Shown here in pieces: positions 1,192 through 45,630 of a stretch of DNA of 64,000 nt. A program made the translations under genes and the position numbers. Below the pieces are notes generated by a model, which did not search any database, had not been told where the DNA came from, and saw only the letters and a list, made by a program, of their open reading frames with translations. The DNA comes from Styela clava. Its lineage: Eukaryota. The stretch lies in contig NC_135250.1 in assembly GCF_964204865.1 (NCBI RefSeq), positions 1,426,001 through 1,490,000 on the forward strand. The letters are read 5' to 3'. Numbering within the stretch: the stretch's first letter is position 1; each line of letters opens with the position of its first letter.

Positions 1192-4100
1192 CGATTCTAT
1201 GATAAACTTTTATTTTTTCCCCTTTTATACCATCAGAGTTTTGTACTCTTATCTGGAACTCGTATTTGTCTCCATATTCCCATTGCGGCAGATCGACTAG
1301 AACAAAATTTTCTTTAACGAAGTATGTGCGAATGTATTGATTTCGAAAGAGTTTCACTTTCTTAATCTTGACCTTGTATCTGATGATTCCTTCACATACA
1401 GCTCCCCACTCAACTTTGATCTGGCCTTCTTCTTCAGAAACTTGTGGATCTTCTGGCACAGGAATTTCTAAATTGTGAAATACCAGCTGCAGTTATTGGA
1501 CTTTCATAAATATTAAATATTGTGAAAGCCTTTTAAACAAAAATATCTTGGAACAACCGGGGTTGTAATCAAATTCTTTTTCAAATGGCTGGGAATTTGA
1601 TGTCAAGTATAAATTCTAGAACTCACCGCCCAGATTGGGGTCACAAACAGCGTTAATTAAGTAGAAGTCCCATAAAACTAAACTAGCAATCCTAGACGAG
1701 GGTCACCAGAGTCTTGAGCCGACCAAAACTCCTACTTGATATCTTATAAGTACGATTAATTTCATTTATATGAAGCTAGTCTTTGATAAATGATGACTGA
1801 AGTCAATGAATGGAGCCTCCCGAACAAACACCTCGTGGGGAGACTGATATTGATTGACAGTTGCCACATTGCATTGCATGTTAGTCACGATGACATCTCT
1901 GATAACACTGAATGCGTGAGCAGGCTTTAATCTTGTTCTAATTATCCCCATAATATTTACTGCAAAAACATACTAGTTTTGTAGTCGGTTGATGATACTA
2001 GTCCTTCACTATCAGCTGAATTTTTTGGGCAAACCTCAACAGTATATTGTGTTGCAGCACACTTCTCCCATTTATATTTTTTCCTTCTGACATGTTTATT
2101 AATATCAAATGGCTGAAAATGAAAATATGAAAGCTTTAATGATTCAGACACCATTCAATTGGTTAATCTGCATTTCCCCTCCAGGGAAGGATTTGAGTAC
2201 AGAAATTTTCCAGAACAATTTGCTCAAAACACACTCACTTAGCAGTAAAAAAGACTACTAAACAAGGTTACAGGTGACCACAGTATATCAACAGCTACTG
2301 AAAGTTAAGTTCATGGTTCTGAAAACAAATAACTGGCTAACTAATCCCATACCGGATAGGGCTTGTAACCGGACGAGAGACTGTGATTCGTCATATGATT
2401 AAGCTGTTTTATCAGTTCTCCTCTCCCTTGGGATAATTATGTAAATCCTATACTAACTATAAAGATATGGTAATGCACTCACTCAGAAGTAAAACAGACA
2501 AATGTCTGTGTGAATGTTATGGCCAACCATGATAATACCAAGAGCTACTAAAACAATATGAAAAGATAAGGGTGTATGAGATGAATTAATTTCAAATAAA
2601 AAAGGTAAAATTTAAACAATAATCTAAAATCTAAACACATATAAACATCATGCTTCATTATTTTATTCACACTCTAGAAGTCATAACATGAAACCAGAGT
2701 CGGGAATTGAAGAAATTTGTGAAGATGCCGATGATTATACTAAGTGAAACAAATTACCTCAGGGTCTCTAACACTTTTTTCAACAGCAATATTTTTCTTA
2801 TAAATCCTAACTTCACATTTTGCAGTGCGTTGGTCCTGTTTCCAACTAGCTTTCAACTTCTCAGAGGAGCTCTTCTTGATTGCTAATGATGTAACTTTGG
2901 CCGGAGCTGTTTTTACAAAGAGGGAATGTTATTTAAAAAAACGATGTACTTGGGAGAGATATTAGTTATAAACATTCAAGGCATTTCAATTAAATTACGG
3001 TATGTATGACATTGATAAGTTGTTTGAAAATTTTTTTTTTACAAAGAAATTCTGAATTCATCTGAAAATGTCAGGTTAAATCCCATGACAACTCACACAT
3101 CCATAGGATAGGATAGGATTTACATATTTATCCCGGGGGAGAGGAAAGCCGATAAGACGGCTTATCCATATGGCGAACCACGGCCTCTCGTCCGGTTACC
3201 ATTCCAAGTCGGGTATGGGATTAGTTATATTGTTTGTCTTCGGAAGCATGGACTTGGTGGTGGAGGAAGCCGTAACCGACCAGCGGTTACGTGAACCACC
3301 CAACGACGGCGAGGAGTCCAGCAATCCTCTCGCACATAACCATCCCTGCATGGGATTCGAACCTGCGAACCCAAGCAGAGTAATCAGAGGTGCGGTGGCG
3401 AGCGTATTCCTAACGCCTAGCCCGTTGAGCCACACCGCCGCGCCATATTGTACCTAGTTAACATGTGACAAATCGGCGATGTGACACATCGAACTATGCG
3501 CTAGGGATACGTGTGCCACTGCACCTCTGATTACCCTGCGTGGATTCGCAGGTCTGAATCTCATGCAGGGTTGATGATGTGCGAGAAGATTGCTGGTCAG
3601 TTACGACTTCCTCCAACATCTAGTCCATGCTTCTAAATAACTGGCTAATTAATTCTATACCCCACATGGACTGGTAACCAAACGAGAAGTCGTGGTTCGC
3701 CTTATGATTAAACCGTCTTTTTGACATTGACATCTTATTAACATCTGTCTTTTAACCACTAACAGGATACATGTCACTCAATACAATATTTACTTTTGAT
3801 AACAGCAGTTTTCATCCGAAATCAGATCAGATTGCATTGTTATCTTTTGAATAACGTAATAGATGTACATCTTGTCTAAATCTTAATTCACCTTATTTCA
3901 CTTCCAAGCCGTCTCATTGGCTTTTTTTCTCTGATAAATCCTATCCTTTTTAAAAAAATTACGGTACATGAAATGTTATGTGGGAGAAACTTCCATTATT
4001 TTAGAATTTATAAAAAATAACACGAGTTAACAAATAACATATAACATAGTTTTATGTAGACTTACTAAACTGAACATTTGCCTCCTGTGCTTTGCTGTGC

Positions 4101-5685
4101 AATCCATATTGATTTCGAACTTCAACTCTAACAGTATACACACGATTATCAGTGAAGCCTTTTCCGCGATACTCATTCCTGTCCAGTATCTTGCTTACTA
4201 CTTTTGGCTTCGAAGCCTCATCCACATTTATCTCATAATCTATAAATTTTCCATCTGGTATGTCCCATTTCGCTTCTATCTTGTCGTGTCCAGAACAGGT
4301 GACCTCAAGATTTTTCACACAGTTTGCAGCTGAAAGTGAGAAATAGCTCAAAACCTATAATACTGACCTATATTATTTAAACAAAACTCAAAATTTATGA
4401 TATTTCATGAAAATCACTTTTTGGAATTCTTATTTTTATTTAAAATGATAATTCATCATTCAATTTTAATTTTATAATATAACACTATTCGAATATGATT
4501 GCCCCCATGTTAAATATAGTCTAAAAAATATAACTGGTATTTCCCAATTCCATTAGAAAGTCAAATCTTGGGACAGTAAAATAGGGATATCCTATCCTAG
4601 TAGCTGAATAAAGTGATATAGTTTGCAAATCGCCTCTTCAGTTGTTATAGCAGCCTTGATTAAACCATGATTGATAAGAAAATTCCTGACCTGTATAGAT
4701 TTTGATGCCTATTATTAATTAAAAACCAATATTTGTTTTAACATAGCACCTATTTTTCCCAACCTGAAGACTTACGTGTATGCACAATTTCAGAGGTGAG
4801 AGATTGTTCAGAATTCTCAATTGTAACTTTAAACCTATAGCTTGATGATGGTTGTGGTTGATTGTGAATAAAACGATTATCATTATATTCATTATGAGCC
4901 TCCCCTTCTTTTGTGCCATTTTTAATAATTTCGATGAGCACTCGAGCATCATTCTCATCCGGAGCATTTACAAATTCCCACTTAACCTCGATACAACTTT
5001 GTGAACCGTCATCATTCAAGTATTTAAATTCAGCTTTCAAATCACTGATTTTCGGTCCTGTATGAAAAAATTATTTATCTTCAGCTATAGTTGTGCAACT
5101 ATGATAGGATAGTATAGGATTTGCATATTTATCCCGGGGGAAAGCATATGGCTGACCATGTTCGCTTATCTGGTTACCAGTTCATGTCGGGTTTGGGATT
5201 AGTTGGCCAATTATTTGTTTTTGGAAGCATGGACTTGATGGTGAAGGAAGCCGTATGGTGGTTTCTTGTACAAAACATACTCGCCTTACTAACTGTTATT
5301 TGTAACTTATTGTTAGCCAGATATTTTCCAGGTAGGGCGAGAGACTTGGAAAATTCTAAAAAATGCCGTGGCTCAAAAAGTTTAAGAACTCTTCATCTAG
5401 ACAGATAAAAGAATGTAGGTACCATGGACAGCATCAATGCCCTGTTAAGATAATAATATTATTCTGGCTACTCATGCTCCATTGATTTCTGGCAGTGGGT
5501 GAGTCGACCCCCAAACAGAAATGTATTTTTACTAGCATTTTTTTCTTCATTTATGATATTTTAGTGTTTTACTTTTGTCAACATTACTAAGAATGCCAAT
5601 TATGAAAGGTTTTTATGAACACTTTTAACTCACCAAGGTTTTCATTCTGTTCCCCATTGTCCAATGCTCTTGCAGCTGCAGCCAT
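1192..5685 (-). CDS. Intracellular fibronectin type III repeat protein, paralog B (4 FN3 domains visible; 3' part presumably continues beyond the left window edge)
   Basis: Phase-compatible GT-AG exons 5685-5634, 5057-4776, 4329-4066, 2906-2758, 2112-1974, 1467-1192 give MAAAARALDNGEQNENLGPKISDLKAEF..IEVKWEF..SSSYRFKVTIEN / PANCVKNLEV..IEAKWDIP..VYTVRVEVRNQYG / TPAKVTSLAI..LKASWKQ..QYTVEVCPKN / PVPEDPQV..IKVEWG..KYEFQIRVQNSDG. Each repeat has the FN3 P..L..W and Y.h.V...N..G hallmarks. The first exon and start codon are less certain. Confidence 0.8.
3103..3444 (-). mobile_element. Full-length SINE copy (same family)
   Basis: Reverse complement of 28793-29140, with an (ATAGG)n tail on the left and CCATA at both flanks. 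Confidence 0.92.
3500..3720 (+). mobile_element. Degenerate, internally deleted SINE copy, head-to-head with 3103-3444
   Basis: gcacctctgattaccctgcgtggattcgcagg...ggtaaccaaacgagaagtcgtggttcgcc matches the SINE consensus. Confidence 0.8.
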
Positions 5686-6208
5686 TTCTTGATCGTGTTG
5701 CTTTAGAGTTGCAAACAGTTATGATTGTTACCTACTGTAGGGCATAAGACAGTTGCAAACCAACCACAGTCTGACAATATCAAACTGTCATCACACTCTT
5801 AATTCTGTAAATAGAATTAAGAAAAGAGTCACATTCATATTCAATAAACTTCAATAAACTCAAACTTCAAATGGAGTTGGCATATGAAGGAGGACAAAAC
5901 GCTTGCACAGACAACTAACTAAAGACAACTTGCCAACTGAGAGAAGTGGTTAGTTGTCTGCCTTGTCACATTTTCTACGGCAACGTTTTAAGATTAGTTT
6001 CACCTTTTCAGACCTAATGTAACAAATTTAAAAACATTTTGATTTTGAATTGGACAAATTTTACAAAATGCTACTTCTATTGCTATTCAAATCAATGTTG
6101 AGTAGAATTACCCTGACTGATTTTTGAAGTCGAGTCAGTCATTGAGTTAAGAAGTCTCAACGGTGGATAGTTGAGTAAGAGTCCAAATCATTCCAATTAG
6201 ATGACATA

Positions 6209-6480
6209 CCGTATATCTTCGCATATAAGACGAGTTTAAAACTCAAAAAAAAGGTTGCCAAACTAAGGGATCGGCTTATACATGAATAACTCTGATCCCA
6301 CTAAAAATTTGTCTAATATGTACATAACTCCGATCGTACTGATTCTCTTCTGCAACCATTTGCTGTGATAGGAGCGTATATGGCGTGTTATGATTTGTAG
6401 GGTCGGCGGATATGCAAAATTTAATAAATTCATCATTTTAGGGCCATTTTTATGTTCAGCTTATATGCGAGGATATAAGT
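6209..6480. mobile_element. Decayed Tc1/mariner(pogo)-type MITE with CCG terminus
   Basis: TA-CCGTATATCTTCGCATATAAG ... CTTATATGCGAGGATATA inverted ends. Confidence 0.6.
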
Positions 6481-7928
6481 CGTTTTTAGTCTTTAATGAA
6501 TGGTAATTTCAGTTGAACCCATGATATGGGCCTCCCTCACAATTTTTCAAATAGGCACAAATCAAGATATGGGATAGTTGCATTTTTCCAAGCAGCGTAC
6601 TGAAGCTTTCAAACAAGGAGATATTGCTTCAATATATCAAGCTCATATAAAATAGTAAATTCATGTACATAGAGTGATGAAGCAAGGAAGCACCAATGAA
6701 AAAAATAAGAACCATAATGAAGTGCAAAGATAATTCAGTTGAAGAAATGATGAAAATATACGAAGCAGGTATGGTACAGTTCACATAGAAAAAAAGTGAA
6801 ATAGAAGCCACATAATATAAAAATTAGGAACTTAATGGATGAAGCAACAATTTTACTATGCTGTTACTAGTAGCAAATTTAAGATCTCGAATGAGGTTGA
6901 CAAAATATTTGGCCGCAGTAATAAAATTGAAATGCAGATTTGTAGCTTTTATATTTGTATAGTAAATCCCAAAAATGGACATAGAAATAAAACGAAAAAA
7001 AGTACAGCATCGAAACACAGACAAAAATGTGGCATCTGGTACGAAATGACATACCGTAAGATAAAAAGGCTCAATTCTGAAAAATGTGGCATGAGTTACC
7101 ATGGCTTCACTGCGAGTATTTACAAATAATTAGTATCAAACATGCAAATTCATACTGACAGTCAGCATATAGCGATCAGCAGCTAAGCATTCAGTCATCT
7201 TATCGACTTTCGTTGGAGCAAAGATATACAGGGGGGCTATAATGTAAAAAAGCTTGAAATTTCAAATGGTTTTTATATGCTACTGTAACAGAATATTATA
7301 ACACCCTGTATATAAAACTTAGGACATTTTTCAGTTATAACCCTCCCCCTCTCCCACACACACACTAAATAGCGGATGTATTGATTAAAATGAAGGAGCG
7401 CATAAACAAAATACTTTCATTAGCGAGTGTGAGTAACTGGAAAGGTCTAAAATTTTAAGTTGGGTATTCTTGAGATCTAACAATGATTTAAGTATTGTGT
7501 ATGAAATCCATGTTCCCAAATATAATGAAATATAGCTAAAAAATGGAGAAAAAAATAAACAGCATAAAAGTATGAAAATATCAGCTGAACAAAGAATTCT
7601 TTGAGAGGTTGCGAGAGGTTTTATTGTTCTGAAGTAGAACAGACTCAGACATTTATGTGCAATAATCAATGTAAAGCAATGAAATGCATATAATAATAAA
7701 ACTAACAAAAACGGAAAATGTTGATTTCATAGCAGTTCATGAGGGTCAGCGTCACTACCTTGCTGAATTTGAGCAGCAAATATAGCGAAAAAACAAATTG
7801 ATAAGAAATCGGGTTAAAATACACGATTAAGAAAAATAAAATATTAGTGTCAGGAACTGAAGAAATGAAGATTTATTTCGTGTATATAGTATATCAGTGA
7901 CATCTAGTCGTAAGGATATGCAGCAATC

Positions 7929-8141
7929 GGCGCTCCAGAAGTGTGTGTACTAATATGAGGTAACTGATTTTGTTCGCCTACTTTACATCAAGTTGTGTAA
8001 AGGGACTGAAACCTATGGGCAGGGGGTATATTCACTTGGCTAACACAGACAGTCCCCGAACTTTTAGTAGAACTAAAAAAAAGAAAATTCGAATGAAAGT
8101 ATGGCCTAACCCTGACCTGGTACATACACTATGGGAGAACC
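7929..8141. mobile_element. Related MITE (second copy inverted at ~12138-12343)
   Basis: GGCGCTCCAGAAGTGTGTGTAC...CCTAACCCTGACCTGGTACATACACTATGGGAGAACC; TSD CAGCAATC. The shared spurious ORF motif YIHLANTDSPRT appears in both copies. Confidence 0.8.
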
Positions 8142-9039
8142 CAGCAATCAGCGCAAGCGAAGCAAAGTTATGCTGTGTGGAATTACCAGGCAGGTGTTAG
8201 ACCAGTGGTTCCCAATCTTTATTAATTCGTGGCACATTTTACTTGCAGAAAAATTCTGTAGAACATCAACTTTTTTATACAAGGGAAGAATTACAGAAAA
8301 ACAAAAAATTTTTTTTATAAAAATAGACACATCACTTTATTATCATTCATTACTACTACAATAAAATTGAACCTCTTCATAAATAACAAACATATTGTGG
8401 CCCATGAAAATGTTACTGTGGCCCATGGCCCACTGGTAGTGTAGTAGTGATAGATTGCAAACCGATGTGTTAGACTACGTGGGCGTCACAGGTTGCACAG
8501 CTTGGATTTAAATTCCATAGTCTCAAAATAAATATCTCTCATCATTTTAAAACTCTTATTTTTGAGGTGTTTTCTCTGCCAACAAGAGGCCACTGTATAT
8601 TAGGGCTACAAATATATTTGGAAAACAATTTACTAAAGCTCTACATTAAGTAAAAAGCTTCTCATTGTGCATTTTCTCAACCAGTAGACCCAGGTCTGGC
8701 CCTTGGGCCCCATTAGGTGGCCACCAAGCAGATCTCTGGCAAGCACGAGGTACCATTAGCATTGACTGTGATTTGATAAAAATTTTTATCTCTGATTCAA
8801 TTATCTTTTTGCTTTTGTTTGTTGGCTTTATTCCTATTAAACATGGTTAAGGGCACAAAATAATTGATGAAATACAATTGGCATTTTTCGAAGTGTTGAG
8901 GGGTCGCTAGAGATCAAAAAAGTTTGAGAATAACTGCACCGGACCCCCTTTAGAAATAAAAAGTTTCCATCTTCCGAAAAAATATCAAAAATCATATTAA
9001 CTCTTCAGTGCAATAAAGTCTAGCAGTGTCGTTGTCTTC

Positions 9040-12000
9040 TTATTCGAATGCAGCATTCGAGGAGCCAGAACTTTCACCTTTCAATGCTCTAGGGACCACA
9101 TGAGCACTCACATGTCCTGTAAAAAAACAAACGGAATCATCATCACAATTATTATCTGTCAATATTGGGCATGTCTGCCACCAGGTATATTCATGTAGAG
9201 CAGGGGTGTGCAAATTGCGACCGGCGGGCCAAATGCGGCCCACAAGGGAAAATTGTGCCCACGGAGAAGTGCCTGAGTGCAAACCTAGCAAGCAAAATCT
9301 TGTTGTAAAATATACAATGTTATAGAATACATGTTTTTCACCGAATTCGTTTGAAGTAGGTGGGACCATGAATTTGAAGACCAGTTTTCTTCAGAAATTT
9401 ATGCGTTTTAACTCACCATTTCTGTAGGACCCTAATAATGCCGTAAGATTAATAATATCAATTTCGTGCTGGCAACTACTAGAAAGGCTATCTTAAATAA
9501 AAGTGTGGCCCGTGGCTTCCCCCAGTTTTTTAGTATCAGGCACTCCTGTAATAAAGGTTGCACACCCCTGATGTAGAGTAATGATGTTGTTAGCAAAGCG
9601 ATGTCATTTGCCAGTATTTTGAATTTATTCCGAGCAAAACTTCCCCGGGGCGTCATGTCGTATATACAAGGTGTCTCAAAGTAAGTATACACTCTTCATT
9701 TTGATTTGCTTTTCTCGTACTAATCATAGAGCGTTTATTTCTTCAGAAAACACAGTATGGATTAGTTGTAAAATTTAGGTATTGTTTGCATTTTTTGTCA
9801 ACCCACAGAATGACAAGGAGATTAAGCCAAAAAATGAGGTGCAAAATTGCTGGCAAGAAGCATATAAATCAGTAAGGCAAACTCAACGCCTCTTTAACAG
9901 AGAATTTGGAATTAATTCGGCTCCTACACGACGCACAATTATGCAATTCATCATAAATGTATGGAAACTGGATCTGTAGTTTATGCACAAAGATCAGGAA
10001 GACCAAGGAGCGGTCGCTCTGGGGAAAACATTCGGAGCCAAATTAATTCCAAATTCTTTGTTAAAGAGGCGCTGAGTTGGCAGCTGTTTTGGCTTTAGTA
10101 TGTGGTGATTGATAATTCTCTCTGATTCGGAATAATCGGATAATTCAGAAAGAAGGTTGGGAACCAGTGATGTAGAGGAATCGAGTCACTTTGATAAATG
10201 ATGACTAGGGTCGATTCAATGACTCAGACCTTCCCTACCTGCTTTAACTGAAAGATGGTTTTGAACTTGATCCGGATTCACATTGATATTTGCACCATTG
10301 TTGAGAGTAACTCTTCCTCCATTTTCACCAAGGTTACATAGAGCTGCATGCAGATGCCCAATATGGTTCACAGTAGTAGGTTGCAGCTGTGCACCTGAAT
10401 ATCAGATAAGATAAGATTTAGATATTTATCTTGAGGGAGAGGAGAGCCGATAAGACGGCTTAACCATATGGCGAACCACAACCTCTCTTCTGGTTACCAT
10501 TTTATGTCGGGTATAGGATTAGTTAGTTATTTGTTTTCGGAAGCATGGACTTGATTGTTGAGTAAGCCGTAATTGACCAGCAGTTACTTGAACCACCCTA
10601 CTGCGGCGAGGAGTCTAGCAATCCTCTCGCACATAACTATCTCTGCATAGGATACAAACCTGCAAACCCACGCAGAGTAATCAGAGGTGCGGTGACGAGC
10701 GTATTCCTAACACTTAGCACGCTGAGCCACACCATCGCACCACGCACCTTTTTTAGAATTTTTCACGTTTCAAGCAGCGCCCTCTTTTTGGAATTTGTCA
10801 AGTCTCAAGCCCCATCTCAAAAATAAATAGCTAACAATAAGCTACAATTAACTGCTTGTAAGGCAGGAAAATAAGACAAGCACGATAGCTCTCTGCAATC
10901 TCTCAACAATGAAAAAATGTAAAAATCCATAACAAGGTGATCAAGATCAAATCTACAAATATTTTCATATTTAATTAGTTTCAAGCCCCCTCAAAAATTG
11001 TTTAACCCCCGTTGTGGGGCGCATCTCACCGTTTGAGAACCACTCCACTAAAGCATAATGCTTCATTATCAGTATAAATATTTTTAATAGCTGTTGATAT
11101 TTCAGTGCTTGGCCGTGATTTTGCTAACAGATAGAATATTAGCTTGGATTTTCAAGTTTGACCAAATGAAATTGACATATGGAAAACACTACTATCTATC
11201 TATACCTGTATTAATGGTAAATGGATTCGTTCTCAAAGTCCTGCTTGCTTGTCCATCTTCTTCTAGCTTGAATTCGAGAGTGTACTTTCCACTGTGGCGC
11301 GCTTCAACGCAGAAATTCAGTGACACCGCTTGGGCACCGAGCATGCATTGTTGTTCCATTTCATGGCCTTCCGCCGGGAAAATTTGCACGGTATTCTCTT
11401 TGCAACGAATGTTGTTCTTGTATTTCTTTGTGCTGTGAAGAACCACAGACATTGGTTTGGGATGAGCGGACTTGTAACCGTTTTCTTTCCACTCTTCAAC
11501 ATCGGCTTTCAAACTATTTTCTTCTGAGCCGTAAATAACTGTGATATCATGATCAGCCTTTACAAGAATATGCATCCTAATTTTGACCAATCCACCTATA
11601 AGGCAAGAAACATAGAACACATGGAAAAGTTTCATAATTCAAAGCTTTCAAGGTGACTTAAAATTGGTGGTTAAAGCATTCGACCCGTGGTTTCCCACCT
11701 TTTATGGATCATAGCCCAATTCCAAAGGCGTTTAGCACTCAAGGTCCTCTGTTTTTCATTCCTGTGGTATTCACAAGGTAATTTTGATTGATATATTCCA
11801 AATTCCATTATGTTTAAACAATATATGGAGTTTCTTGCGGAGTGAATGTGAAATAAGTTTTTCTCCTAGCTTTGTGGCCCTTCTCCAACTGTTCTGTGAC
11901 CACCTTGGGGGCCACGGGCCCCCAGTTGAGAATCGCTGTGTTAGACTTAATTATATAGATGATGCAGGTTAAATATCTTACAATTTTCAATTTCCATGCT

Positions 12001-15000: not shown

Positions 15001-17525
15001 AGCAAGAGCAGAGCCAAGCAAATTTTAAAAATGGTCAATGGGTAGATGATTGTGTAGATTGTTTATTTATGTAAAATAATAAAATCTGGGATACGGCCTA
15101 TGATAGAAAGAACCAAGAGTTTTACTAATCCCATCAGATTAAACTCCATACTTATCACCTCACCCGGGGAGGGTGTAATGAATGAAAGGTAGAGTTATAG
15201 CTGAACTGAATAGGCTGCACCCCCCCCCCCCCCTCCTCAAAAAGAAATAAATAAACGTTTTTTCTATAGATCAGTGCCTGCTTGTCTACGGCCTTGTTTA
15301 AAATGAAAAATAAACTATTGAAAATATCCTTCATCACTTACGCAATGCAACTTCTGTTTCCACTGGTTTGCTGTATATTCCATTTTTGTCCTTTACTTTA
15401 ACCTCGATGCGATAAGGTTTAGAAAGTTTGCAGTGGCGTACACAGAACGCATTTCTGTTTAATCTCTCAAGTACCGGTGATATCAACTTCTTGTCCATGA
15501 ACACTTCTATCTTATATTTTTCAAATTGCCATTCTGGTGTGTCCCATGTCACGTTAATTTGGTCTCCATAAACCGTTGCTTTGAGATTTTTCAGCTTATC
15601 GGGTCCTGAATTTTAAAACAAGTTTTATTTAATTTAGAACGTAGGTAATTTTGTATGTGGGAATCTGGAACAATATTATTAAATTTAACATTGTCCTGCT
15701 CGGTAGAGAAAAAATGAGTACAAATCAGTGCTTATTATAGGGATTCAATTTACGTAATTTCAGAAAGGCGGGCTTTTTTACAGGAATATGGCGCATCCAC
15801 AACTAATCATGCTGTCCATGGTCCAGTTCTTATAATTGAAGTAATGCCTCACAATCGTTCCAATTGGTTTCTGTAGCTCTGAGCATTTAAGTAATCGCAC
15901 ATAGCATAGCTCTGAGACCTGTCTACTTTACTCTTGAGTGAGTGCGCATTATCTTGCTGTGGAAAATTTCTCTTGAAAATTGAAAAATGCTTAAATACGC
16001 CAAGTACATGAAAAATAATAAATTGCATATTCCATTCTATATAGCAGTGGTTCCCAACCATAGCCATGGCTCCCAAAGGGGACCCCAGAGCAGTTGAAGA
16101 GGGACCACAGGCAAAAGACTGATTTTAGTTTTTCCTTAACATGAAACTGCCCTGATGCTTTCACCTTGTTGCATTGTTTGAAAATAAAGAGATTTGTAAT
16201 TTATCAATCATTATAACACTATCAATACCAATGAAATGATAAACATGGGGCCATGAGTGCTAAAAAACTCATGTTGGTAGCCCCTAGCCCTACAAGGTCC
16301 AGAACCACTGCTATATTGTATCATATATCACTGAATAAGCACTTAGAACCTTGATTCGAACAATTTTCACTGTAAACAGTGGCATATCTAAGTTATGGCA
16401 ACTGTGGCTGGTGTCATGGGGACCATTTTATAAGATACACCAACGATTTTAAATATTGACTTACGAGTGTACACAATATTAGACAAGGATGGTTTTGTAT
16501 TAAAATCTTCATTTTCAATCCAAACTTTGAACTGATAACTTGATGAATGTTCTGTAGATTTGTACTCGAAAAAATTCCCAATACATTCCCGTTCTTCTAA
16601 CTGAAAATTAAAAAAATTAAAATTATTTTATCTTAAATTGCCCATTTTTTGACCAGACTCTTGTAGCAAAACAGATTTTCATCCAATGACCACTCCAGAT
16701 TGAGTCGGATAGCATGTTCAGTTCTTAATTATGCATGGAGTTGATTGGTGAAACAAGCCTTGAGTAATCAGTGTGGGCTGTGGGGTGCAGAAAGATAATT
16801 ATCATAAATAAATGAATCATTATCATAAATAAAAAAACTTGGAAGTCACCTCCAGTCCATTTTTGAAAATTTGTGTAAACACGTCTGCAGAAATGCCACG
16901 TACTGGTTTCCATGAAACAATGATAGATGAGTCTTCCTCAGATAGATTTGCTTTTAAACCATGGATTTCCAAGTCTATATATAAATTGGGGGTAAACTTA
17001 TTACCGTAGGTTTCTTAACTAAAATATAGCTGATATCATCAATCCATGCATCTGAAACAAATAATTCCTTATTCCTATTCCTGACATGGACCAAACGATA
17101 GACCGTGTTTTGCAATATGAATAAGCTGTCTTAGGATGGAGAGAGGAAAACTGATAAGACGGCTTAACCATATGGCAAACCACGGCCTCTCGTCCGGTTA
17201 CGATTCTATGTCGGGTATGGGATTAGTTAATTACTTGTTTTTTCGGAAGCATGGTGGAGGAAGTCGTATCCGACCAGCGGTTACGTGAGCAGTCCTACGG
17301 CAACGAGGAATCAGAGGCGAGCATATTCCTAACGCTCAGCACAATGAGCCACACCTTCACGCGTCTTATCGGCTTTCTTCTCCCCCAGGATAAATATGTA
17401 AATCCTATTCTAAATCATCGGGAGAAACTGTTTCAAACAAATAATTTAGAAAAAATAGTTTAAGGTAAATAATTACCTGGAAGAAGTTTGTCTTTGTCTT
17501 TATTTGCAGACTGACAGCAACCCAT
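9040..17525 (-). CDS. Predicted N-myristoylated/palmitoylated protein, 577 aa: MGCCQS - 4x FN3 - UPA-like beta domain - N/H/V-rich RHIM-like tail (paralog A)
   Basis: Ten phase-compatible GT-AG exons 17525-17477, 16974-16850, 16600-16465, 15605-15342, 14515-14394, 13501-13366, 12662-12384, 11595-11206, 10394-10239, 9116-9040 sum to 1734 nt with an open frame from MGCCQSANKDKDKLLP to ..GESSGSSNAAFE*. FN3 hallmarks occur in four repeats. No signal peptide or TM segment seen. Confidence 0.85.
9201..9570. mobile_element. hAT MITE
   Basis: TIR CAGGGGTGTGCAA / TTGCACACCCCTG; perfect TSD ATGTAGAG. Confidence 0.9.
9665..10035 (+). pseudogene. Tc1/mariner transposase N-terminal remnant (frameshifted)
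   Basis: TA-CAAGGTGTCTCAAA TIR-like start; WQEAYKSVRQTQRLFNREFGINSAPTRRTI / AIHHKCMETGSVVYAQRSGRPRSGRSGENI (HTH plus GRPR motif). Confidence 0.75.
10405..10741 (-). mobile_element. Full-length older SINE copy in an intron of FN3 gene A
   Basis: Aligns over its full length to 3103-3444, with several CpG-type transitions. Confidence 0.9.
16045..16310. mobile_element. hAT (Charlie-like) MITE
   Basis: CAGTGGTTC...GAACCACTG; TSD CTATATAG / CTATATTG. Confidence 0.8.
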
Positions 17526-21082: not shown

Positions 21083-23027
21083 TCAGCACATTTGTTGAAT
21101 CTTTTCATCAATGTCATCTATCAGTGACTTTAAATTTTGCCACTGCTCGGCTGGGAGGCTGACACCTGGATGTATAAATTAAAAAACATTTAAATTTGGA
21201 AGGGAAAGAGTAGTACTTTTCACATCAACCTTGATCATGCTAAAAATTGAGAGCACTTCAGAATAATTTTGTCTATAAAAACGTTGGCATTTTTAGTTCT
21301 AGTTGAAAGGTTAATTTAGGAAATAAAACATAAGCCAATTATTTGGAATCTGCAGTCAAATGCTGGTATATCAAAATAAAACCATATAAAACAATGCAAG
21401 AGCTCTTCAGATTTCAGTGGTAACCTGTAACTTTGCTCAGTGATGAGTCTGCTCTTCTTCTGAGTGATTGCACATGAAATTGCTTCAAGCAAATTCCTAT
21501 CAAAAATTACAGTTAAAATAGTTCACCAACCTTTCCTTCCTGGAAATAATTCTCCATCTTTTTCATAATGTTCACGAATATCAACATAAATTTTATTCTT
21601 GAATTCTCTCACGGTGACGAATTTCATTTTACCAATCTGCAATCAAAAGCTATAGTTATTCCCGACTGTTGAAAGTGGCAAAGTTAACATCTTTCATCAA
21701 ACCTTATGTGCCAAAAGCAGTGGTTCCCAAACAGTGGCTCGTGGGCCAATTACGGCCCGCATAACAAATTGAAATGGCCCGCTAGATAGGACCGTGAAAT
21801 GGTTTAACACTTTATGAACGCTAAAACTGAAACTCAGCGAAATTCCACTTGATGTGTTTTGGATTTTCATAAAAGAAAAATATAAGCACATTTCCAATGC
21901 AGCTATTGAAATATTGCTCCAGTTTTGCACTACTTATGTGTGCGAACAAAGCTTTTCCTCTTTATTACTGATCAAAAACGATCAACGATCCTGTATAAAA
22001 GATGTTGACGGCGAACTTCGAGTTGCTCTTTCACGTATTGTGCTCATTAAAACAACCACAAATCTCTCATTGAAATATAAACATAAAACAAACTTGCACT
22101 TTGTTTTTTTCGTTTGTTGTGGTGTGCCGTCGAATTTGGCAAGATTTATAAGTGTGCCCAAGTTTAAAAAGGTTGCGGAGCACTGTTCTAGATACTATCT
22201 AGGTTATTATCACAGTTTAAGCATTTGAATATTCGTAACAATTCAATCACACCAGTATAACAATTATACGTAACGGTATTACGGTAACATACTGTTCGGG
22301 ACCTTGCTGTTGCTTCCAACGCCTGGTGCGCGAATATCAAGTAACCAGGTATGACACTAGACTGAAATGCGTATAACAACTTTCTAACAAAAATGGACCA
22401 CATGACAAAATTTTAATCTTACCGATAATTTTTCTTCTTTATTACCATCCTGTTGTCTGCTATTCCCAGCAGGTCGCTTTGCTTCAGGTGCCGCTGTATC
22501 TGCTTGTTTGCGCTTTGTTGCAGATTTCTTCTGTTCTCTAAAAATAATTTTATTCTAATTTATTCTTTTTAATTACTAATATCTGTAAGCAACAATATAT
22601 ATGTGATATATATATAGGGTGTCTCAAAATAAATAAAACTGATTAATTCGATTACCAATTTTGTGCAACAATATAAATATATATAATACAATGAAGATGC
22701 ATATATATAATATAAAGTCTTAAAATACCAAAACTGAAAAAGGCCTTTAAATACAATCCTGATGTTGTAAAATCATGAGAGAGCCTATAGTGGTCGCTTA
22801 TACCTTTCCTGCCGGTAAACAGGAAGGAACTTAAGACAGAAATATTCTAGTTCTCCTTTACAGTAGCACCCGTCCTATTAGTTGATGCTTGTGTAGAACT
22901 TTGCTCAGAGTAGACATGACTTAAGAACAGAAATAATTGAAGCATCTTACTTTCTCAGCTTTGCTTTTATCTTTTTCTCATTTTCAGAATCACTTGAGTC
23001 TGACAAAGCTTCCCCTTTGCCTGACAT
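21083..23027 (-). CDS. SUB1: Activated RNA polymerase II transcriptional coactivator p15 (PC4), 126 aa
   Basis: Exons 23027-22951, 22537-22423, 21636-21531, 21165-21083. Ser/acidic N-terminus ([10 protein letters not shown]), Lys-rich linker, and PC4 domain [58 protein letters not shown]. Confidence 0.95.
21718..22185 (+). mobile_element. hAT (Charlie/Buster-like) deletion derivative with C-terminal transposase dimerisation-domain remnant, in SUB1 intron 2
   Basis: Ends CAGTGGTTCCCAAAC / GGTTGCGGAGCACTG; translation [64 protein letters not shown]. Confidence 0.85.
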
Positions 23028-23109
23028 TTTATTTGGCTATTTGTTTGATTTATCTGGCAAATAGTGTAAAGTAAAAAAGAGTGAAATAAATTAATGTAGT
23101 AGACTATAG

Positions 23110-27629: not shown

Positions 27630-28430
27630 TTAGCTAAGTTTACAGTTCGAATCATCTCTCCTCGATTCTTGTTGCGTTCGGCGTCTACTCGCAGCTCGTC
27701 TTTCTTCTTCCTCTCGTTGAAGCTCCTGAGCCATGATACGATCTTTCTCTTCTTGAGTGAGGGGTTTGGGTTCATCTGCTAATGACATTTGAAGTGCCCG
27801 GGCTAAAGCTTCGTCCTCAGAAAGATTTCCTTGTAATTGTGAAGTCGATATTCCACGATTTTGTCGCTCTGCATTTAAGCTTCGACCAAGATCGTTTAAA
27901 GTTGTTTTTTGTGGTCGTGTTTGCCTCGGTTGTGAAACCGTGTTTCTCGAACTTGAGGCTTTATTAAAACGAAAAATTGCAGCCACGCCAGAGTTTGAAA
28001 TCCCTCGTCCACTGCTTTGAAATCCTTTACAGTCATGGTCTTGCGTATGGCGGTGTCGCAAACAAAAGTTTTGCCGACAGTCTGGGCAAACAACTGGTAT
28101 GAGTTCTTTCTGTTTACACTTTGGAGCTGAACAACGATTAGAATACGCCTGCCTATGTTTTTTCGCTGGATCAGATTGACAATCTCGATCGATATGTTCT
28201 CCAACTTTTATGTCCGCCACTTCACCTCGTGGCACTGGCACTGGCTTATTACAAAGTGGGCAAACTGGAACTTGGACATCTTTCTTATAAGAAGATTCAC
28301 ATTTATGATCTTCGTATCGAATATGGTTTTTACAAAATTGCTTTTCACAAGCGTCGCACTTTATCGGTAAAAAGTCTAACTGGCGACAAAATGAATCTGA
28401 GCAATGGTCTCCTATTTTTGGCAACTCCAT
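27630..28430 (-). CDS. ZFAND2B: AN1-type zinc finger protein 2A/2B (AIRAP/AIRAPL-like), 266 aa, intronless CDS
   Basis: MELPKIGDHCSDSFCRQLDFLPIKCDACEKQFCKNHIRYEDHKC (AN1); CPLCNKPVP..VGEHIDRDC; second AN1 CSAPKCKQKELIPVVCPDCRQNFCLRHRHTQDHDC; VIM-like SGVAAIFRF; UIM LSEDEALARALQMSLAD; C-terminal CAAX CKLS. Confidence 0.95.
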   Translation of the reverse strand: MELPKIGDHCSDSFCRQLDFLPIKCDACEKQFCKNHIRYEDHKCESSYKKDVQVPVCPLCNKPVPVPRGEVADIKVGEHIDRDCQSDPAKKHRQAYSNRCSAPKCKQKELIPVVCPDCRQNFCLRHRHTQDHDCKGFQSSGRGISNSGVAAIFRFNKASSSRNTVSQPRQTRPQKTTLNDLGRSLNAERQNRGISTSQLQGNLSEDEALARALQMSLADEPKPLTQEEKDRIMAQELQREEEERRAASRRRTQQESRRDDSNCKLS

Positions 28431-33688: not shown

Positions 33689-35647
33689 ATGGATTTGTTA
33701 AAATTGTTAGGTCAGTCAATGGAAGGTGTTGGAGATCGACCGAGCACCTCGCGCAAAAATTCCGGACCGGTAGATATCCATAGTGGATTCCAGGGACTTA
33801 TTGACGAGCTCGATACAATGGCGGAAGCTGTAGGCATTCCCAAGAGTCAACTTCTTGACACATGGGCCACCCTTGGTATTACCAAAGCATATCGTCACAG
33901 TCGACAACGCATATTCAAAGTGGCTGATAAAATATCGGCGGGCTTGGTTGGCAATGAAACTATAAAGAATATCAGAGGCGTTGAAACGCCATTATCGAGC
34001 GTGGAAGAGTGGGATTTTCAATTGGGTGATATGGTAAAAGTTAAATACCCATTAAAAGATTTCGAGTCCATTCAGAGGAGGACTATAGGTTGGGTGCCAC
34101 GTCTTGCTTTAGTACATGGTCACATTGGAGTAGTAACTAAAATCGCGTCAAAATTTGACAATGCTATCAACGTTTTGTTTCGCGATATTTTCCATAGTTG
34201 TACTCTGTATGCAGGCGTTCTTGAAAAGGTCTCAACTGACAACATTGTTCATCGTTCTTCGCGATGGAAAGTCGGAGATATAGTCAAACTAAATTCTGAC
34301 GGTTTACTTGTACCTTTGTTACAGATCGGATTGGGATATATTCCCAAGGAATGCTTCGGTAAGAAAGGGAGAGTCACGGCCATAGCTCCTTTTCACGTGG
34401 AGGTGACGTTTAATGGGATGGAAAGCATCCAAATATCTTCTGCTTTGTTAGAATCGTGCGCTGACCAGGTCCCTATCGCAAGAACTAACACAGCTTCAAT
34501 TACCAACTTTGGAGTCGGCGAAAGAGTCAAAGTAATTGACAACATGAAAAATCTGATTGCAAATCAAAAAGATGAAGGTGGCTGGTACAAAGAAATGAGC
34601 AAAATTAAGGGACAGGAAGTAACCATCGTCATTATCGGAGAAGACTCAACTCTTCATGTACAAGCTATACATGGTCGATCTTGGATAGTTTCATCCAAAT
34701 CCTTATTAAAGTTAGACGCCCAACAACCTGCCTTCGACGATGATTTGAAATTTTCTCCAAAGGATTTAGTCAAAATAAAAATTCCTCAAACTATTCGAAT
34801 GACGCTCGGCTCACAAAATATTCCGTTCATATTTCTTGAATATCTGAGAACAGTTGGTGAAATAGTGTACGTTGATGACACGCTCAACTGCTATGTCAAG
34901 TTCAACAAATCGCAAAAAATTATGGTGAACCCCCGAGCTCTCAGAAAACCTACGGCGAACGAAGTCGTGAACTATCAGAACATTCAAGCTCAAGTTGACA
35001 ATATCAAGCAAGGTGACGACGTTCTTCTTGATGTCGGCCCGCCCAACTATGTTCAAGCCGTTCTTCAAGATTCAGATTTTGATGGACAGGTGAAAATGGC
35101 ACTGACTAATCCTGCAAAACTTGTGGGTTTTATTGACTACGACACAGCGGTCATTGAATACCAAAGTGGCGTGAGATACCGAATTGGAATGAAATATCTA
35201 ACAGTTCCTGACAAATTCAAGGCGAAAGATACTAAAACTATATTGGATTTCAAGACCGCGGAAGCGATACGTGACATGATCGCCAAAGCCGTACGTGCCC
35301 TCACTGCCCTGTATAATGAAGATGATATGGATGCAATTAACTGTAATGTCGATGTCACATCCCTGGTATATGGCTGCCCTCCTTCTATAGAGGTGCGCAT
35401 TCAATTATTGACCGCACAACTTGAAGATGTGGTTAGTTGGCTACAGAAATATTCCGGTTGGGAAATTTTCGAATTTTTCCCAGGCCAATTCCTCTTGACC
35501 GAAGTCGACGGATTTGATAGCGAGATAAAGCTGTCAATTATTTTCAACGACAACGGAAATGTTGTTGAGGAACAACGTCTTACCGTCGCCACGAGAAATA
35601 TTATCAATATAGCCCACGTAGATCAGGTGAACAACGTGATTAACTGA
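33689..35647 (+). CDS. Mind bomb SH3 (REP/SH3_15)-repeat protein 1, about 652 aa, single coding exon; no RING/ankyrin/ZZ
   Basis: Long uninterrupted ORF. Five repeats of the form F.hGD.V.h......Q...GW......G..G.V..h.....h.V.f......h....L (DFQLGDMVKV, RWKVGDIVKL, NFGVGERVKV..QKDEGGWYKEM, KFSPKDLVKI, NIKQGDDVLL). The start was moved to MDLLKLL (33689) because it aligns with the paralog's MDLAELL and follows a splice acceptor ttcattcag at 33671. Confidence 0.85.
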   Translation: MDLLKLLGQSMEGVGDRPSTSRKNSGPVDIHSGFQGLIDELDTMAEAVGIPKSQLLDTWATLGITKAYRHSRQRIFKVADKISAGLVGNETIKNIRGVETPLSSVEEWDFQLGDMVKVKYPLKDFESIQRRTIGWVPRLALVHGHIGVVTKIASKFDNAINVLFRDIFHSCTLYAGVLEKVSTDNIVHRSSRWKVGDIVKLNSDGLLVPLLQIGLGYIPKECFGKKGRVTAIAPFHVEVTFNGMESIQISSALLESCADQVPIARTNTASITNFGVGERVKVIDNMKNLIANQKDEGGWYKEMSKIKGQEVTIVIIGEDSTLHVQAIHGRSWIVSSKSLLKLDAQQPAFDDDLKFSPKDLVKIKIPQTIRMTLGSQNIPFIFLEYLRTVGEIVYVDDTLNCYVKFNKSQKIMVNPRALRKPTANEVVNYQNIQAQVDNIKQGDDVLLDVGPPNYVQAVLQDSDFDGQVKMALTNPAKLVGFIDYDTAVIEYQSGVRYRIGMKYLTVPDKFKAKDTKTILDFKTAEAIRDMIAKAVRALTALYNEDDMDAINCNVDVTSLVYGCPPSIEVRIQLLTAQLEDVVSWLQKYSGWEIFEFFPGQFLLTEVDGFDSEIKLSIIFNDNGNVVEEQRLTVATRNIINIAHVDQVNNVIN

Positions 35648-41600: not shown

Positions 41601-42542
41601 TTTACTACTTATGTATCGAGTACCTAATCCGCTTTGCTTGGACACGAAACTTGCGCATCACTAAACGGATCCCTTGAACTCCGCGAAAATCTCACGGCTC
41701 TAGCTTAGCAACAGAAATACCAAATTTGAGTCCCATTTAGGCGTTGTTTCAATTCTCAGTTTTGCATATAGCGCACCAACGCCGTTTCGTAAAATTGAAA
41801 TTGTCAAACAAGTTAACAAATTATTGAGCGAACTTTTACCAAGGAATTATTATTTTAGTAGTAGAATTGTCATTATTGCCTATTTATTGAATCGTTATTT
41901 GAACTCAAAATAACATTCAGGATTCAATGCAATGACTTTGCAGGGTTTTTATATATTATTTAATACGGAAATAAACATGCACAATTGAAAAGTAAATTCA
42001 TAAGTAGGCCAACTATGTTCTTCAAAAATATCCGCATCCGGGTGTCAGAAATGATAACGTTGTTTACCTAAAATTGGGACAGTTAATTTGCAAACGGTGA
42101 CGGAAAAGATCAAAGCCGCCGCAAAAGATAAAATGGGAATAAAATTCCGAATTCACTCCCTAAAAGCCGTCTTTAACATATGTTGCCGATATGAAATCGT
42201 AGTTCTCCCAGCAATATAAAACCAAACTTCGACGTGGCGTAAGTATTGGTGCTTGTAAAAAAAGGGGACAGCGGAAATGTAGCTCACCAAAATTAGAATG
42301 TCTCGCGTTATAGATGCGTGTTGTATATTTATTAAAACTACCCGATAATCGACAATTCACTGAAATATTGGAATTATTCAATTTACCGCTTTGTTGCCGA
42401 CTTTGCGATATTTATATTAATTTCCAACGGGAGTATCGACCTCCGACGTCCTAAACCCGTTGTGTATAAAAATAGATTCGTTATTCGGAATTCGTTAAAA
42501 ATATTCGATTCGAAAAAAAATATTCGATTTTGCTCACCTCTA
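38659..42542. mobile_element. Older hAT-like element that contains 39002-41157 and itself splits a SINE
   Basis: Degenerate ends tagggg..gaggggcaaattattcga / tcgattttgctcacctcta; subterminal ATTCG arrays; degenerate 8-bp TSD ATGATTTG / ATCATGTG. SINE pieces lie at ~38600-38658 and 42543-42630. Confidence 0.6.
39002..41157. mobile_element. Non-autonomous hAT-type DNA transposon (2156 bp)
   Basis: Perfect 12-bp TIR TAGGGATGCGAC / GTCGCATCCCTA; perfect 8-bp TSD GCAATTAG (38994-39001, 41158-41165); subterminal GGATTCG/GGACTCG repeats; no transposase ORF. Confidence 0.93.
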
Positions 42543-43413
42543 ATCATGTGGCAAACCACGGCCTCTTGTCCTGTACCAGTCCATGTTTTGGACTTTTTGA
42601 TGGAGAAAACCGTAACCGCCTAGCAGTTATGTGGATTTTAACAGGATATTTTTAAACCGTCTTCCTGGATAAGAAGCTTCCAAGGAAATGGTTTATAATG
42701 ACCGACGCTTTCCTGTTCGGCGCAGTCTACTTATTACACTCTGGTTCTCATGGTTTGACCAGGATGCCGATATCTTCTACCCGTGATATAAATAAGTCAA
42801 TATGTAAGTCAATATAAGCCGCTAGTGTCGTGTAGGAGCTACAAATATGGACCAAATGGCACCGCCCATGGTTATGGAGCCAAAACCATTCTGAATCATA
42901 TACGTTTTCCGGCAATAGGAAGACTATGCGTTTTAGTTAAGCTGTTAGCGCGCCTTCTCTTTTGAAAATCTTAGGGCAACTTTGTTTTCGAAAATCGTTA
43001 GAAAATACGATGTCTGTGTGCAATTGTTATTATTTTTACTGTTTTTAGTTAATACTGAACTTATCAGTATTACCGGACTTATTTCCTGATAGTTATAGCA
43101 CTATTAGGTTGAGTTAAGAATAGCTCATGTAAATCGGGCAGCATTTATTCAACCTGACATCGGAACCAAAATCAACAACGAGTAGATATATCGTCCCAAC
43201 CAAGTTGGTTTCGCCTCTAACTCAATATTTACTCGTTCACAGATGAAATTTCAAATTTCGCAAAGACTTGCATTTTTTGCAGATTCATACCAGGTAGCTA
43301 AGTTACAATCTTTTTTTTTAAATAGCTTTAAAAGTAATTCTTGACTTGAAATATTCTGGTAGTCAAGTTCAAATTGACACTTATTCAGACTGGTTCAATA
43401 CATATAATAAGGC

Positions 43414-45630
43414 ATGGATTTAGCCGAATTGTTACGTCAATTGAAGGATTGCGATGATAGCCTACCCGACCTTATGAGTCCGGAATCTCCAGGTGACAAA
43501 TTGACCGACGCTCTCGATGCCTCGAAAGCACTCGAAGCCTTGAAAGAACAGCTAGGGATTTCTAAACCCAACCTTTCCAACATTTCGTCGCTAATTAACC
43601 ACATATATATTAGTAGTCGATCGCGCATATTCAAATTGGCTGATAAATTAGCGGTGACGTTTGATGGAGACGAAATAGTAAACGCAAAACGAGGCCAAAT
43701 TCCCTTACCAGCCGAGGAGAAGTGGGATTTTAAATTGGGCGATCGGGTCAGGGTTAAATGCTCACTGAAAGATTTTGAATCGGTACAGAGAAGAACCATA
43801 GGCTGGACAACCCGTCTTGTCGTAGTTCATGGCCATACCGGGGTGGTGACCGACGTCGCATCTGAGTACGACAACGTGATCAATGTTTTATTCCTGGATA
43901 TTTTTCAAGGCTGTAGTCTGTACGCAGGCGTTCTTGAAAAAGTTCCCACTGTAGATGTTACTAGCCATCTTTCACGGTGGAAGATAGGAGATATGGTCAA
44001 ACCCAAGGTCGATACTCTGCTCGCAAAAAAGCTACAGAGTGGGCTGAAAGCAATTCCCAAGAATTTGTTAGGCAAGAAAGGGAAAGTTACTGCAGTAGCA
44101 CGTTTTCATGTTGAAGTTACGTTTGACGACAAAGAAAGCGTTCAAGTCTCTGCTGCTCTGCTGGTTCGCAGCGAGGACCAGTCGCCTATCACAAAATCAA
44201 GCCCAATCAGCAATTTCAAGGTTGGCGAAAAAGTTAAAATTATTCGAAACATGAAAAGCCTGATTTCGAACCAAAACAACAAAGGTGGTTGGAACAAGGA
44301 AATGTGTAAATTGCGAGGACAAGAAGTGGTGATTGGTAGTATTCACACAGATTCCTCACTTATCGTACACGCAAAACACGCTCGACCATGGAGGGTGTCT
44401 CCTGATTCAGTGTTGCCGCTCGATGTTGAGGAAATTGTCTCCACCAAAGACTTGGACTTTTTACCCGGCGATTTGGTTAAAGTAAAAATCCATCCGAATG
44501 TGGGAATGACACTCGCATCGCAGAATATTCCGATGGTGTTTCTTGAGTATCTCAGAGGGGTTGCTCAAGTAGCTTCCGTGGATGATGATTTTGACTGCTT
44601 TGTCAAATTTAATCAGTCGCAAAAGTTCATGATGAAACCTGACGCCCTTGAAAAACCCACTGCAGCGGAAATCGAGAAGTTCAAGAGGATTCAAGCTCGT
44701 GTCAAGGATCTCACAGTGGGTGATGAAGTTCACATAGATGTCGGTCCTCCGAATTATGTCAGAGTGATTCTTAGAGATTCAGATTTTGAGGAAAACGTGA
44801 GGATGGCACTGGTCAACCCGGCTAAACTTGTTGGTTTCATTGATTACGACACGGCTGTCATTGAATACCAAGGTGGCTCAAGATTCAAAATCGGAATGAA
44901 ATATTTAACGGTTGCCGATAAATACTTGGTAAAAGATGCCAAAAAGATTTTGGATTTTGACACCGCTAAATCCTTACGTGACATGATTGCAAAAAGCGTT
45001 CATGATATATGCAATGAGCAAGATTTAGGTGAAAACAACTGCAAAGTCGATGTCACCTCTATGACATACGGATCTCCTCCTTCCATAGAAATACGCATTC
45101 AATCTGTGATGGCTCAACTTGATAATATCGTTCAACGCTTACAGCAAGTAACTGGATGGAAAATCGCCAGTGTTTGCGACGGACAGTATTTTGTGACTGG
45201 AGTCGCGGGATTTGATAGCGAGATAAGCCTGTCCATAATCTTTAACGACAGCGAAAGTATTGTTGAGAAACAAGGTGTTAGAACTTCAATCGAAACTTTT
45301 GAGGAGCCTATAGCCAGTGAAAATGAAGCAATAGGTTTCGTAGATGACGAGGAACCAATCGCTTCTCCGCCCGGTGGTAATCAGCAGCAACCCCTGGCTC
45401 ATCGCAACCCAAATGTGAGAAGTCTAAGAGAATTCAGATATTATTGTCTCTATGATCGCCAACTTGGGCACACTGTCTACTTCCCATACGTTATCCGGGG
45501 TCAGAGACGGGTTTCAGCTGAGTTCCTGGAAGAAGGACTTCCGGACCCGAGAGAACCAACCGTGATAAATAATAATTATGTGCAATGTGCTGGGAATTTC
45601 GGAAAGATCAAGTATTCCCAGATTGTTTAA
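43414..45630 (+). CDS. Mind bomb SH3 (REP/SH3_15)-repeat protein 2, 738 aa, single coding exon; tandem paralog of 33689-35647
   Basis: Collinear with paralog 1 (e.g. KDFESVQRRTIGW, LYAGVLEKV, NPAKLVGFIDYDTAVIEYQ, GFDSEISLSIIFND), plus an extra C-terminal segment of about 90 aa. Acceptor ttattcag at 43388 lies just upstream of the ATG. Confidence 0.88.
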   Translation: MDLAELLRQLKDCDDSLPDLMSPESPGDKLTDALDASKALEALKEQLGISKPNLSNISSLINHIYISSRSRIFKLADKLAVTFDGDEIVNAKRGQIPLPAEEKWDFKLGDRVRVKCSLKDFESVQRRTIGWTTRLVVVHGHTGVVTDVASEYDNVINVLFLDIFQGCSLYAGVLEKVPTVDVTSHLSRWKIGDMVKPKVDTLLAKKLQSGLKAIPKNLLGKKGKVTAVARFHVEVTFDDKESVQVSAALLVRSEDQSPITKSSPISNFKVGEKVKIIRNMKSLISNQNNKGGWNKEMCKLRGQEVVIGSIHTDSSLIVHAKHARPWRVSPDSVLPLDVEEIVSTKDLDFLPGDLVKVKIHPNVGMTLASQNIPMVFLEYLRGVAQVASVDDDFDCFVKFNQSQKFMMKPDALEKPTAAEIEKFKRIQARVKDLTVGDEVHIDVGPPNYVRVILRDSDFEENVRMALVNPAKLVGFIDYDTAVIEYQGGSRFKIGMKYLTVADKYLVKDAKKILDFDTAKSLRDMIAKSVHDICNEQDLGENNCKVDVTSMTYGSPPSIEIRIQSVMAQLDNIVQRLQQVTGWKIASVCDGQYFVTGVAGFDSEISLSIIFNDSESIVEKQGVRTSIETFEEPIASENEAIGFVDDEEPIASPPGGNQQQPLAHRNPNVRSLREFRYYCLYDRQLGHTVYFPYVIRGQRRVSAEFLEEGLPDPREPTVINNNYVQCAGNFGKIKYSQIV

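Follow-up and report, generated by a model that had tools for sequence, protein, structure and literature searches.

Do two unusual gene families that lie within 45 kb of an ascidian chromosome form one signalling module, or are they unrelated genes that happen to be neighbours? The DNA in question (hereafter the window) comprises 64,000 nucleotides of Styela clava (assembly GCF_964204865.1, NC_135250.1, positions 1,426,001 to 1,490,000) and lies on C1 of the 377-Mb genome that was searched. One family, FN3-UPA, joins FN3 domains to a UPA-like beta-sandwich and is represented by genes A and B in the window and by copies C and D, at most 28 kb to its left. The other, Mib-SH3, joins the SH3-like repeats of Mind bomb to a nucleotidyltransferase (NTase) fold and is represented by genes g1 and g2. 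An initial annotation had described these as clustered families with terminal RHIM-like motifs and had proposed that they act together. Both families are real, as judged by the exon models, the identity of gene A with record P0009 and the open frames of g1 and g2, and the fold assignments were largely right (Pfam fn3; a match to the repeat (REP) part of MIB1; VIA Z 8-9 for the NTase fold). We put the chances at about even that these are two unrelated families of ascidian type, likely neighbours by chance, which encode cytoplasmic scaffolds or decoys, each clustering with its own paralogues through a private, non-RHIM tail.

Neither family has a named function in the records found. A literature search, with most subscription papers outside its reach, returned no paper about either family or about amyloid motifs in tunicates, and both architectures (lipid motif, four FN3 domains, UPA-like domain and tail; five Mib repeats, dead NTase and tail) appear to be undescribed in the literature searched. 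No other invertebrates are as closely related to vertebrates as tunicates. If the tails, or the NLR repeat exons described below, form signalling fibrils, they would represent an independent replacement of RHIM next to the vertebrate lineage; if they do not, the locus holds an ordinary pair of lineage-specific expansions.

Tails and linkage of the two families

Both families end in conserved segments that are rich in Asn and poor in Pro. Between gene A and copy C the tail exon is 45% identical (z 9.2), the folded domains are 30-34% identical, and the last exon of gene A is unconserved (z 1.0). Among the long Mib-SH3 forms of the genome, the end is the most Asn-rich 20-mer in six of seven, the exception being g2 (2.5% of its 20-mers). 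Short forms have no Asn-rich end, and a homologue from another source (P0006) carries the same type of tail. The terminal motifs of the initial annotation stand as real, conserved tails; their likeness to RHIM was not confirmed.

The core tetrad of RHIM is (V/I)-Q-(V/I/L/C)-G (PMC13506858). In 19 sequences scanned it was absent from every tail, and the only tetrad seen lay within an SH3 repeat of the C6 paralogue. None of eight tail pieces matched a Pfam family at E ≤ 10, RHIM (PF12721) included, and the Pfam RHIM model, whose sensitivity is limited because it is short, gave nothing over the cut-off in the genome and two sub-threshold matches, neither in these families. The VxxG core of cRHIM occurs in the tail exons of C and D, a pattern too loose to count, and is absent within the tail exon of gene A and both Mib terminal segments of the window. 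According to PMC4262963, RHIMs appear to be missing from tunicates, and the lack of RHIM features here fits that statement. Like the RHIM and cRHIM of RIPK1-RIPK3 and PGRP-LC-Imd, the window tails are short, Asn/Val/Ile/Gly-rich motifs in an unstructured region (as predicted for g2) and stand where death-fold domains often do (PMC4262963); unlike them, they have neither tetrad nor Pfam match, and no motif was found on two architectures in the searches made, which were not exhaustive.

The proposal that the neighbouring families make up one membrane-proximal sensor/adaptor system, co-polymerising through matching amyloid tails, draws on the shared composition, on the predicted lipid anchor of one family, on the distance of 16 kb between gene A and g1 and on the partial cross-seeding known between differing motifs (PMC12881547). 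Against it, the two tail types fail to align (hhalign probability 0.1%; cross-family z at most 2.4). Genome searches with each type returned its own family and nothing else (3/3 and 6/6), and tail profiles gave nothing significant at 20 NACHT loci and two kinases (no NACHT locus better than E 0.12). Neither family carries an effector domain. Two unrelated genes lie between them, and clustering in the sense first proposed was not confirmed: FN3-UPA is restricted to one array, and Mib-SH3 has 13 genome matches on C1, C6, C10 and C13, several of them broken, of which two are in the window. In twelve 10-kb stretches flanking the remaining Mib loci and that of the kinase described below, no match to the UPA, FN3-array or FN3-tail profiles was found. 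Fungal NLR-effector pairs (nwd2/het-S, PNT1/HELLP) offer a parallel in the idea of adjacent genes coupled by an amyloid motif (PMC12881547), but the members of such pairs share the motif, one being an NLR and the other a pore-former; the window tails are of two kinds, and the window contains neither an NLR nor a pore-former. The genome has about a hundred or more NLRs and abounds in lineage-specific arrays, a background against which two odd families within 45 kb would be unremarkable. We consider a linked pair very improbable.

The tails could instead be short motifs of an ordinary kind, which bind a folded domain as a beta-strand or hairpin, on scaffolds that do not polymerise and possibly act outside immunity. 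Guidance and Notch functions are also known for UPA domains and Mib repeats, respectively, which counts in favour of such a role. Within the Mib C-terminus, conservation is highest not in the Asn-rich end but in an aromatic hairpin, FRY...VYFPY; it is common to the long paralogues and to homologues from other sources and is absent in g1. The FN3 tail profile matched no solved amyloid chain among PDB sequences (seven matches at E 0.35-5.6, to DARPins and a low-complexity repeat, were rejected). On the other side, the C-terminal Asn/Ile/Val bias recurs in most long Mib forms despite sequence drift, and hydrophobic-Asn-Gly units recur along the FN3 tail, which has a phase 1-1 exon to itself. Non-polymerising binding motifs are somewhat unlikely on balance, and still the strongest of the competing explanations.

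Several observations weigh against our preferred reading of unrelated families with private clustering tails. That either tail would form beta-stacks is a prediction from its composition only. Between the recent copies C and D the tail exon has 12 non-synonymous and three synonymous codon changes (UPA exon: 23 and 15), which speaks against strong constraint in recent times. By profile search of 124 kb (4,213 peptides), gene B has no UPA-like or tail exon of its own, there being four FN3 units and three each of the UPA and tail exons; the annotated plan of repeats, signalling domain and tail is not kept in gene B. Copies C and D look damaged in this genome, C by a stop codon that interrupts the frame of its last FN3 exon (C is intact in another record, P0016) and D by an insertion in its first FN3 exon. 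Mib ends other than the g1-C6 pair (Table 1) mostly compare at z under 3, and the g2 end reaches at most 0.5 with its in-genome paralogues. The genome tail searches used single short queries, which distant motifs may escape. Finally, a Tollip-like gene and weak death-domain exons 40-55 kb to the left mean that the region may not be functionally random.

Table 1. Positions of features in the window (coordinates of the window) and of repeat and C8 copies elsewhere in the genome
Feature	Position	Strand	Basis or remark
Gene A (LOC120348508), 577 aa	9040..17525	-	Exon model, RNA-like contigs, Pfam
MGCCQS N-terminus of gene A	17508..17525	-	Predicted myristoylation and palmitoylation, from sequence
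UPA-like exon, beta-sandwich with helix following second strand	11206..11595	-	Predicted model
Gene A tail exon, phase 1-1, 52 codons, Gly/Asn/Val-rich	10239..10394	-	Three-paralogue conservation, not RHIM
Likely long 3' untranslated region of gene A	5814..9039	-	RNA-like contigs tile 5814-9115, small gaps
Gene B, four FN3 domains	1192..5685	-	Exon model, Pfam fn3
Gene B exons	5685-5634, 5057-4776, 4329-4066, 2906-2758, 2112-1974, 1467-1192	-	Exon model
g1, 652 aa: repeats, NTase-fold domain, short Asn/Ile end, no hairpin motif	33689..35647	+	
g1 terminal 17 residues, Asn/Ile/Val-rich	35594..35644	+	Matches C6 paralogue end, z 5.7 against shuffles
g2, 738 aa: five SH3-like repeats, NTase fold, disordered linker, hairpin, Asn-rich end	43414..45630	+	
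NTase palm, Pol-beta superfamily, without catalytic acid set	44932..45267	+	g2 residues 507-618
g2 FRY...VYFPY motif	45433..45492	+	Predicted beta-hairpin, low confidence
g2 terminal Asn-rich segment, VQCA not VQCG	45556..45627	+	Most divergent tail of Mib family
PC4/SUB1-like gene (presumed) between families	21083..23027	-	Exon peptides
ZFAND2-like single-exon gene between families	27630..28430	-	Pfam zf-AN1, ZFAND2 C2H2, UIM
33-residue repeat sites	C1:31.36-31.77, C1:24.46-24.48, C5:0.11-0.29, C13:4.0, C3:22.82, C8:1.13, C2:9.99, C6:17.84 Mb		
C8 stretch copies	C8:1248788, 1778775, 2132047, 2358740, 2404360		

The FN3-UPA family

The exon model of gene A comprises ten exons with GT-AG borders throughout and is identical to P0009. 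It reads, in order, MGCC, four FN3 domains, the UPA-like sandwich exon (130 residues), the Gly/Asn tail exon and a short last exon. Contigs were taken from four RNA-like runs of two studies; the designation as RNA is the guess of the tool, and none of the runs is recorded as RNA. These contigs cover the exons of gene A, and one of them runs from the UPA-like exon into the last exon across 155 letters, close to the 156 nucleotides of the tail exon. All four runs show a 6-letter deletion at window position 15474, in the second FN3 exon; it matches a record of 575 residues, against 577 here, and is read as allelic variation. The contig cover of gene B is thin, telling neither way.

Membrane anchoring, as first annotated, survives in altered form: gene A encodes no transmembrane helix (its hydropathy over 19 residues peaks at 1.03). 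A lipid anchor would take its place, and the MGCC start is what we take to be a lipidation-type motif. Gene B starts with MAAAAR and has no MGCC.

The UPA assignment is plausible. The predicted model has low confidence (pLDDT 58.7). Its fold is compatible with UPA, as UNC5B residues 706-828 align with Z 5.4 (rank 32; root-mean-square deviation (rmsd) 4.8 over 92 residues), but this score ties with many Ig-like sandwich folds (top Z 6.7). Since the model is weak and the match so tied, we keep the name UPA-like. Foldseek gave no match at E ≤ 0.001, the exon has no Pfam UPA match, and Pfam on the full protein P0009 found fn3 alone above the cut-off, with no flanking ZU5 or death domain. The exon has three matches in the genome, all within the FN3-UPA array, and its profile retrieved seven matches from 1.84 billion representatives, two of them real and both from Styela clava. 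The other five were rejected as bacterial repeat proteins (three named as Cna-B or LPXTG-anchored, two unnamed).

Gene A resembles the ZU5-UPA-death domain proteins (UNC5, PIDD, ankyrin) in its membrane-proximal scaffold logic and UNC5B-compatible sandwich, and differs from them in having an FN3 array for ZU5, a short tail for the death domain and a lipid motif for the transmembrane helix. Its product would be tethered to the inner face of the membrane by N-terminal lipids, would display the four FN3 domains and the putative UPA-like sandwich, and may oligomerise through the Gly/Asn tail exon, placed where UPA proteins have their death domain.

Between gene B and copy C lies a frameshifted LINE-like element (a long interspersed element) with endonuclease and reverse transcriptase pieces (L011:1697-4705, minus strand). 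Elsewhere, at C1:26.51-26.57 Mb on the minus strand, a giant run holds dozens of FN3 exons, with a 532-residue P-loop frame near its end that is possibly a STAND-type NTPase by a weak Pfam match. No UPA or tail profile match was found in 60 kb at this giant FN3-array gene (C1:26.5 Mb).

The Mib-SH3 family

Both g1 and g2 are intronless single open frames, 53% identical to each other. Three Mib repeats pass Pfam and five are seen in the structure model of g2; their best PDB match is the REP domain of MIB1 (profile E 4.5e-16; VIA Z 12-13), and these repeats were the only part of the whole g2 model matched in Foldseek. In tandem SH3-like Mib repeats the two proteins resemble the REP of MIB1/MIB2 (PDB 4tse, 4xi6). 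They differ from Mind bomb in having five repeats and no introns, and neither full frame has MZM, ankyrin or RING in Pfam, for which the g2 model leaves no room; by architecture they are not E3 ligases. The family has six further homologues at 28-40%. MG or MMG opens five of the six short forms. None of the short forms has the NTase domain or the hairpin motif, and most of them end at or shortly past the last repeat. An inverted pair of short genes with MG...S starts, and with neither NTase domain nor tail, lies at C1:1985681-1993609.

The NTase fold was recognised by structure. Residues 507-618 of g2 gave VIA Z 9.0 with Pol mu, 8.9 with Pol beta, 8.4 with TdT and 8.1 with cGLR1 and PAP (best match: rmsd 3.4, 100 aligned). 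By sequence, this domain had spurious matches only in PDB and Pfam, and residues 505-738 as a homologue query retrieved 0 of 791 candidates. The ESM Atlas gave no usable match for the C-terminal part of either family. The catalytic motif of such enzymes, which we take to be hG[GS]...DhD plus a third acid, is not kept. In the aligned copies Gly is kept in 6/6 with one D/E after it (by the likely register), all six have R or N where the second acid would stand, and S or G occupies the likely third position. The chain becomes disordered where the helical lobe should come, residues 613-738 of g2, tail included, being mostly below pLDDT 50. Because the acid set is lost and disorder follows, the domain is best regarded as a pseudo-enzyme. 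Compared with the Pol-beta NTases (Pol mu, TdT, PAP/TUTase, OAS, cGLR), the palm is retained over about 95-108 residues (Z 7-9), but at 6-15% identity, without the acids or helical lobe, and with no subfamily prominent.

PMC5912950 reports that MIB2 binds RIPK1 through MZM, so this known contact of Mind bomb with RIPK1 requires a domain that the window proteins lack. The Mib-SH3 proteins keep the REP part of Mind bomb alone, and the long forms add a catalytically dead NTase palm and a tail of hairpin plus Asn/Ile end. Having no enzymatic activity, they would serve as adaptors or competitors in signalling that includes a RIPK-like kinase with the same repeats.

Possible partners elsewhere and neighbouring genes

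A genome search with Pfam SH3_15 gave 25 matches, one of which revealed such a kinase. At C10:21450901-21453480 (minus strand) an intronless single frame encodes 860 residues, a kinase closest in PDB to RIPK2/RIPK1 followed by five Mib-SH3 repeats; no tail, death domain or RHIM was found in it. We infer that this kinase ties the Mib repeats, and not the tails, to RIPK-type signalling in Styela clava.

NACHT has at least 97 matches in the genome (97 scored among 194 candidates), and about half of these belong to dense, near-identical exons at 0.02-8.9 Mb of C2. A 33-residue repeat exon, rich in Ile, Val, Glu, Asn, Gln, Thr and His and with an internal rhythm of eight residues, occurs in at least 150 copies (150 scored among 215 candidates), in arrays on C1 and C5 with a few copies elsewhere. 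It has no Pfam match. All 36 distinct copies checked are open phase 1-1 exons with AG-GT borders. Of the 12 sites checked, eight have a NACHT frame on the same strand after the repeats, one has a fragment, and three have none in the DNA examined. The arrays with NACHT are candidates for NLRs whose N-terminal repeats, of beta-solenoid or amyloid-like type, are very long, and are probably more interesting than the window families themselves.

One or both window tails could be the receiving end of ascidian amyloid or beta-solenoid signalling, in which these NLRs are the sensors and the window genes are unlinked adaptors. The number and uniformity of the repeat exons, the NACHT frames beyond them and a composition like that of the Mib ends all point this way. 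So does a conserved stretch on C8 with five copies, each upstream of a NACHT exon and with a poly-Lys run and a splice donor at its end, one copy of which resembles the FN3 tail (z 2.9-4.0; 3-11 of 1,000 shuffles reach its score). The window tails, however, resemble the 33-residue repeat in composition only (z 0.4 for g1, -1.3 for g2 and 1.8 for A), tail-against-repeat scores being weak throughout (z -1.3 to 3.0, best for P0006; hhalign 0.1-0.3%), and splicing from array to NACHT is presumed. Selection of the C8 stretch was post hoc (E 1.4 among 6,727 peptides), and its second copy reaches z 1.2-1.6 (86-125 of 1,000 shuffles). It may be a first exon with 5' untranslated region, is damaged in three of five copies and is a weak lead only. 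Unlinked adaptors of this kind are decidedly unlikely, and we think equally little of the broader proposal that sea squirts evolved an amyloid or beta-solenoid immune signalling of their own, in which NLR arrays of dozens of repeat exons template unlinked adaptors with C-terminal tails, such as the Mib-SH3/pseudo-NTase and lipid-anchored FN3-UPA proteins, and the RIPK-like kinase is joined through Mib-SH3 repeats. The NLR arrays and the kinase are what leaves room for an amyloid-type system of this sort. A tail-like match 6 kb upstream of a C1 NACHT exon was dropped, having no exon signals.

Of the two genes that separate the families, one encodes what we take to be a PC4/SUB1-like protein and the other is ZFAND2-like (Table 1). 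Directly left of the FN3-UPA array are intronless genes for a Tollip-like protein (C2 and CUE; L014:205-1122, plus strand) and a HEAT-repeat protein (L014:2832-5792, plus strand), the latter presumably PP4R1-like. Two death-domain-like exons lie about 55 kb left of the window (L016:4563-4748 and L016:6618-6785, both plus strand), the second with a weak Pfam Death match (E 0.0035) and the first recognised by eye only. To the right of g2 the window holds a trypsin-like protease gene (48501-52728, minus strand), a GNAT gene that is presumably NAA20-like (57711-58719, plus strand) and an exon that we take to be PRMT1-like (63051-63341, plus strand).

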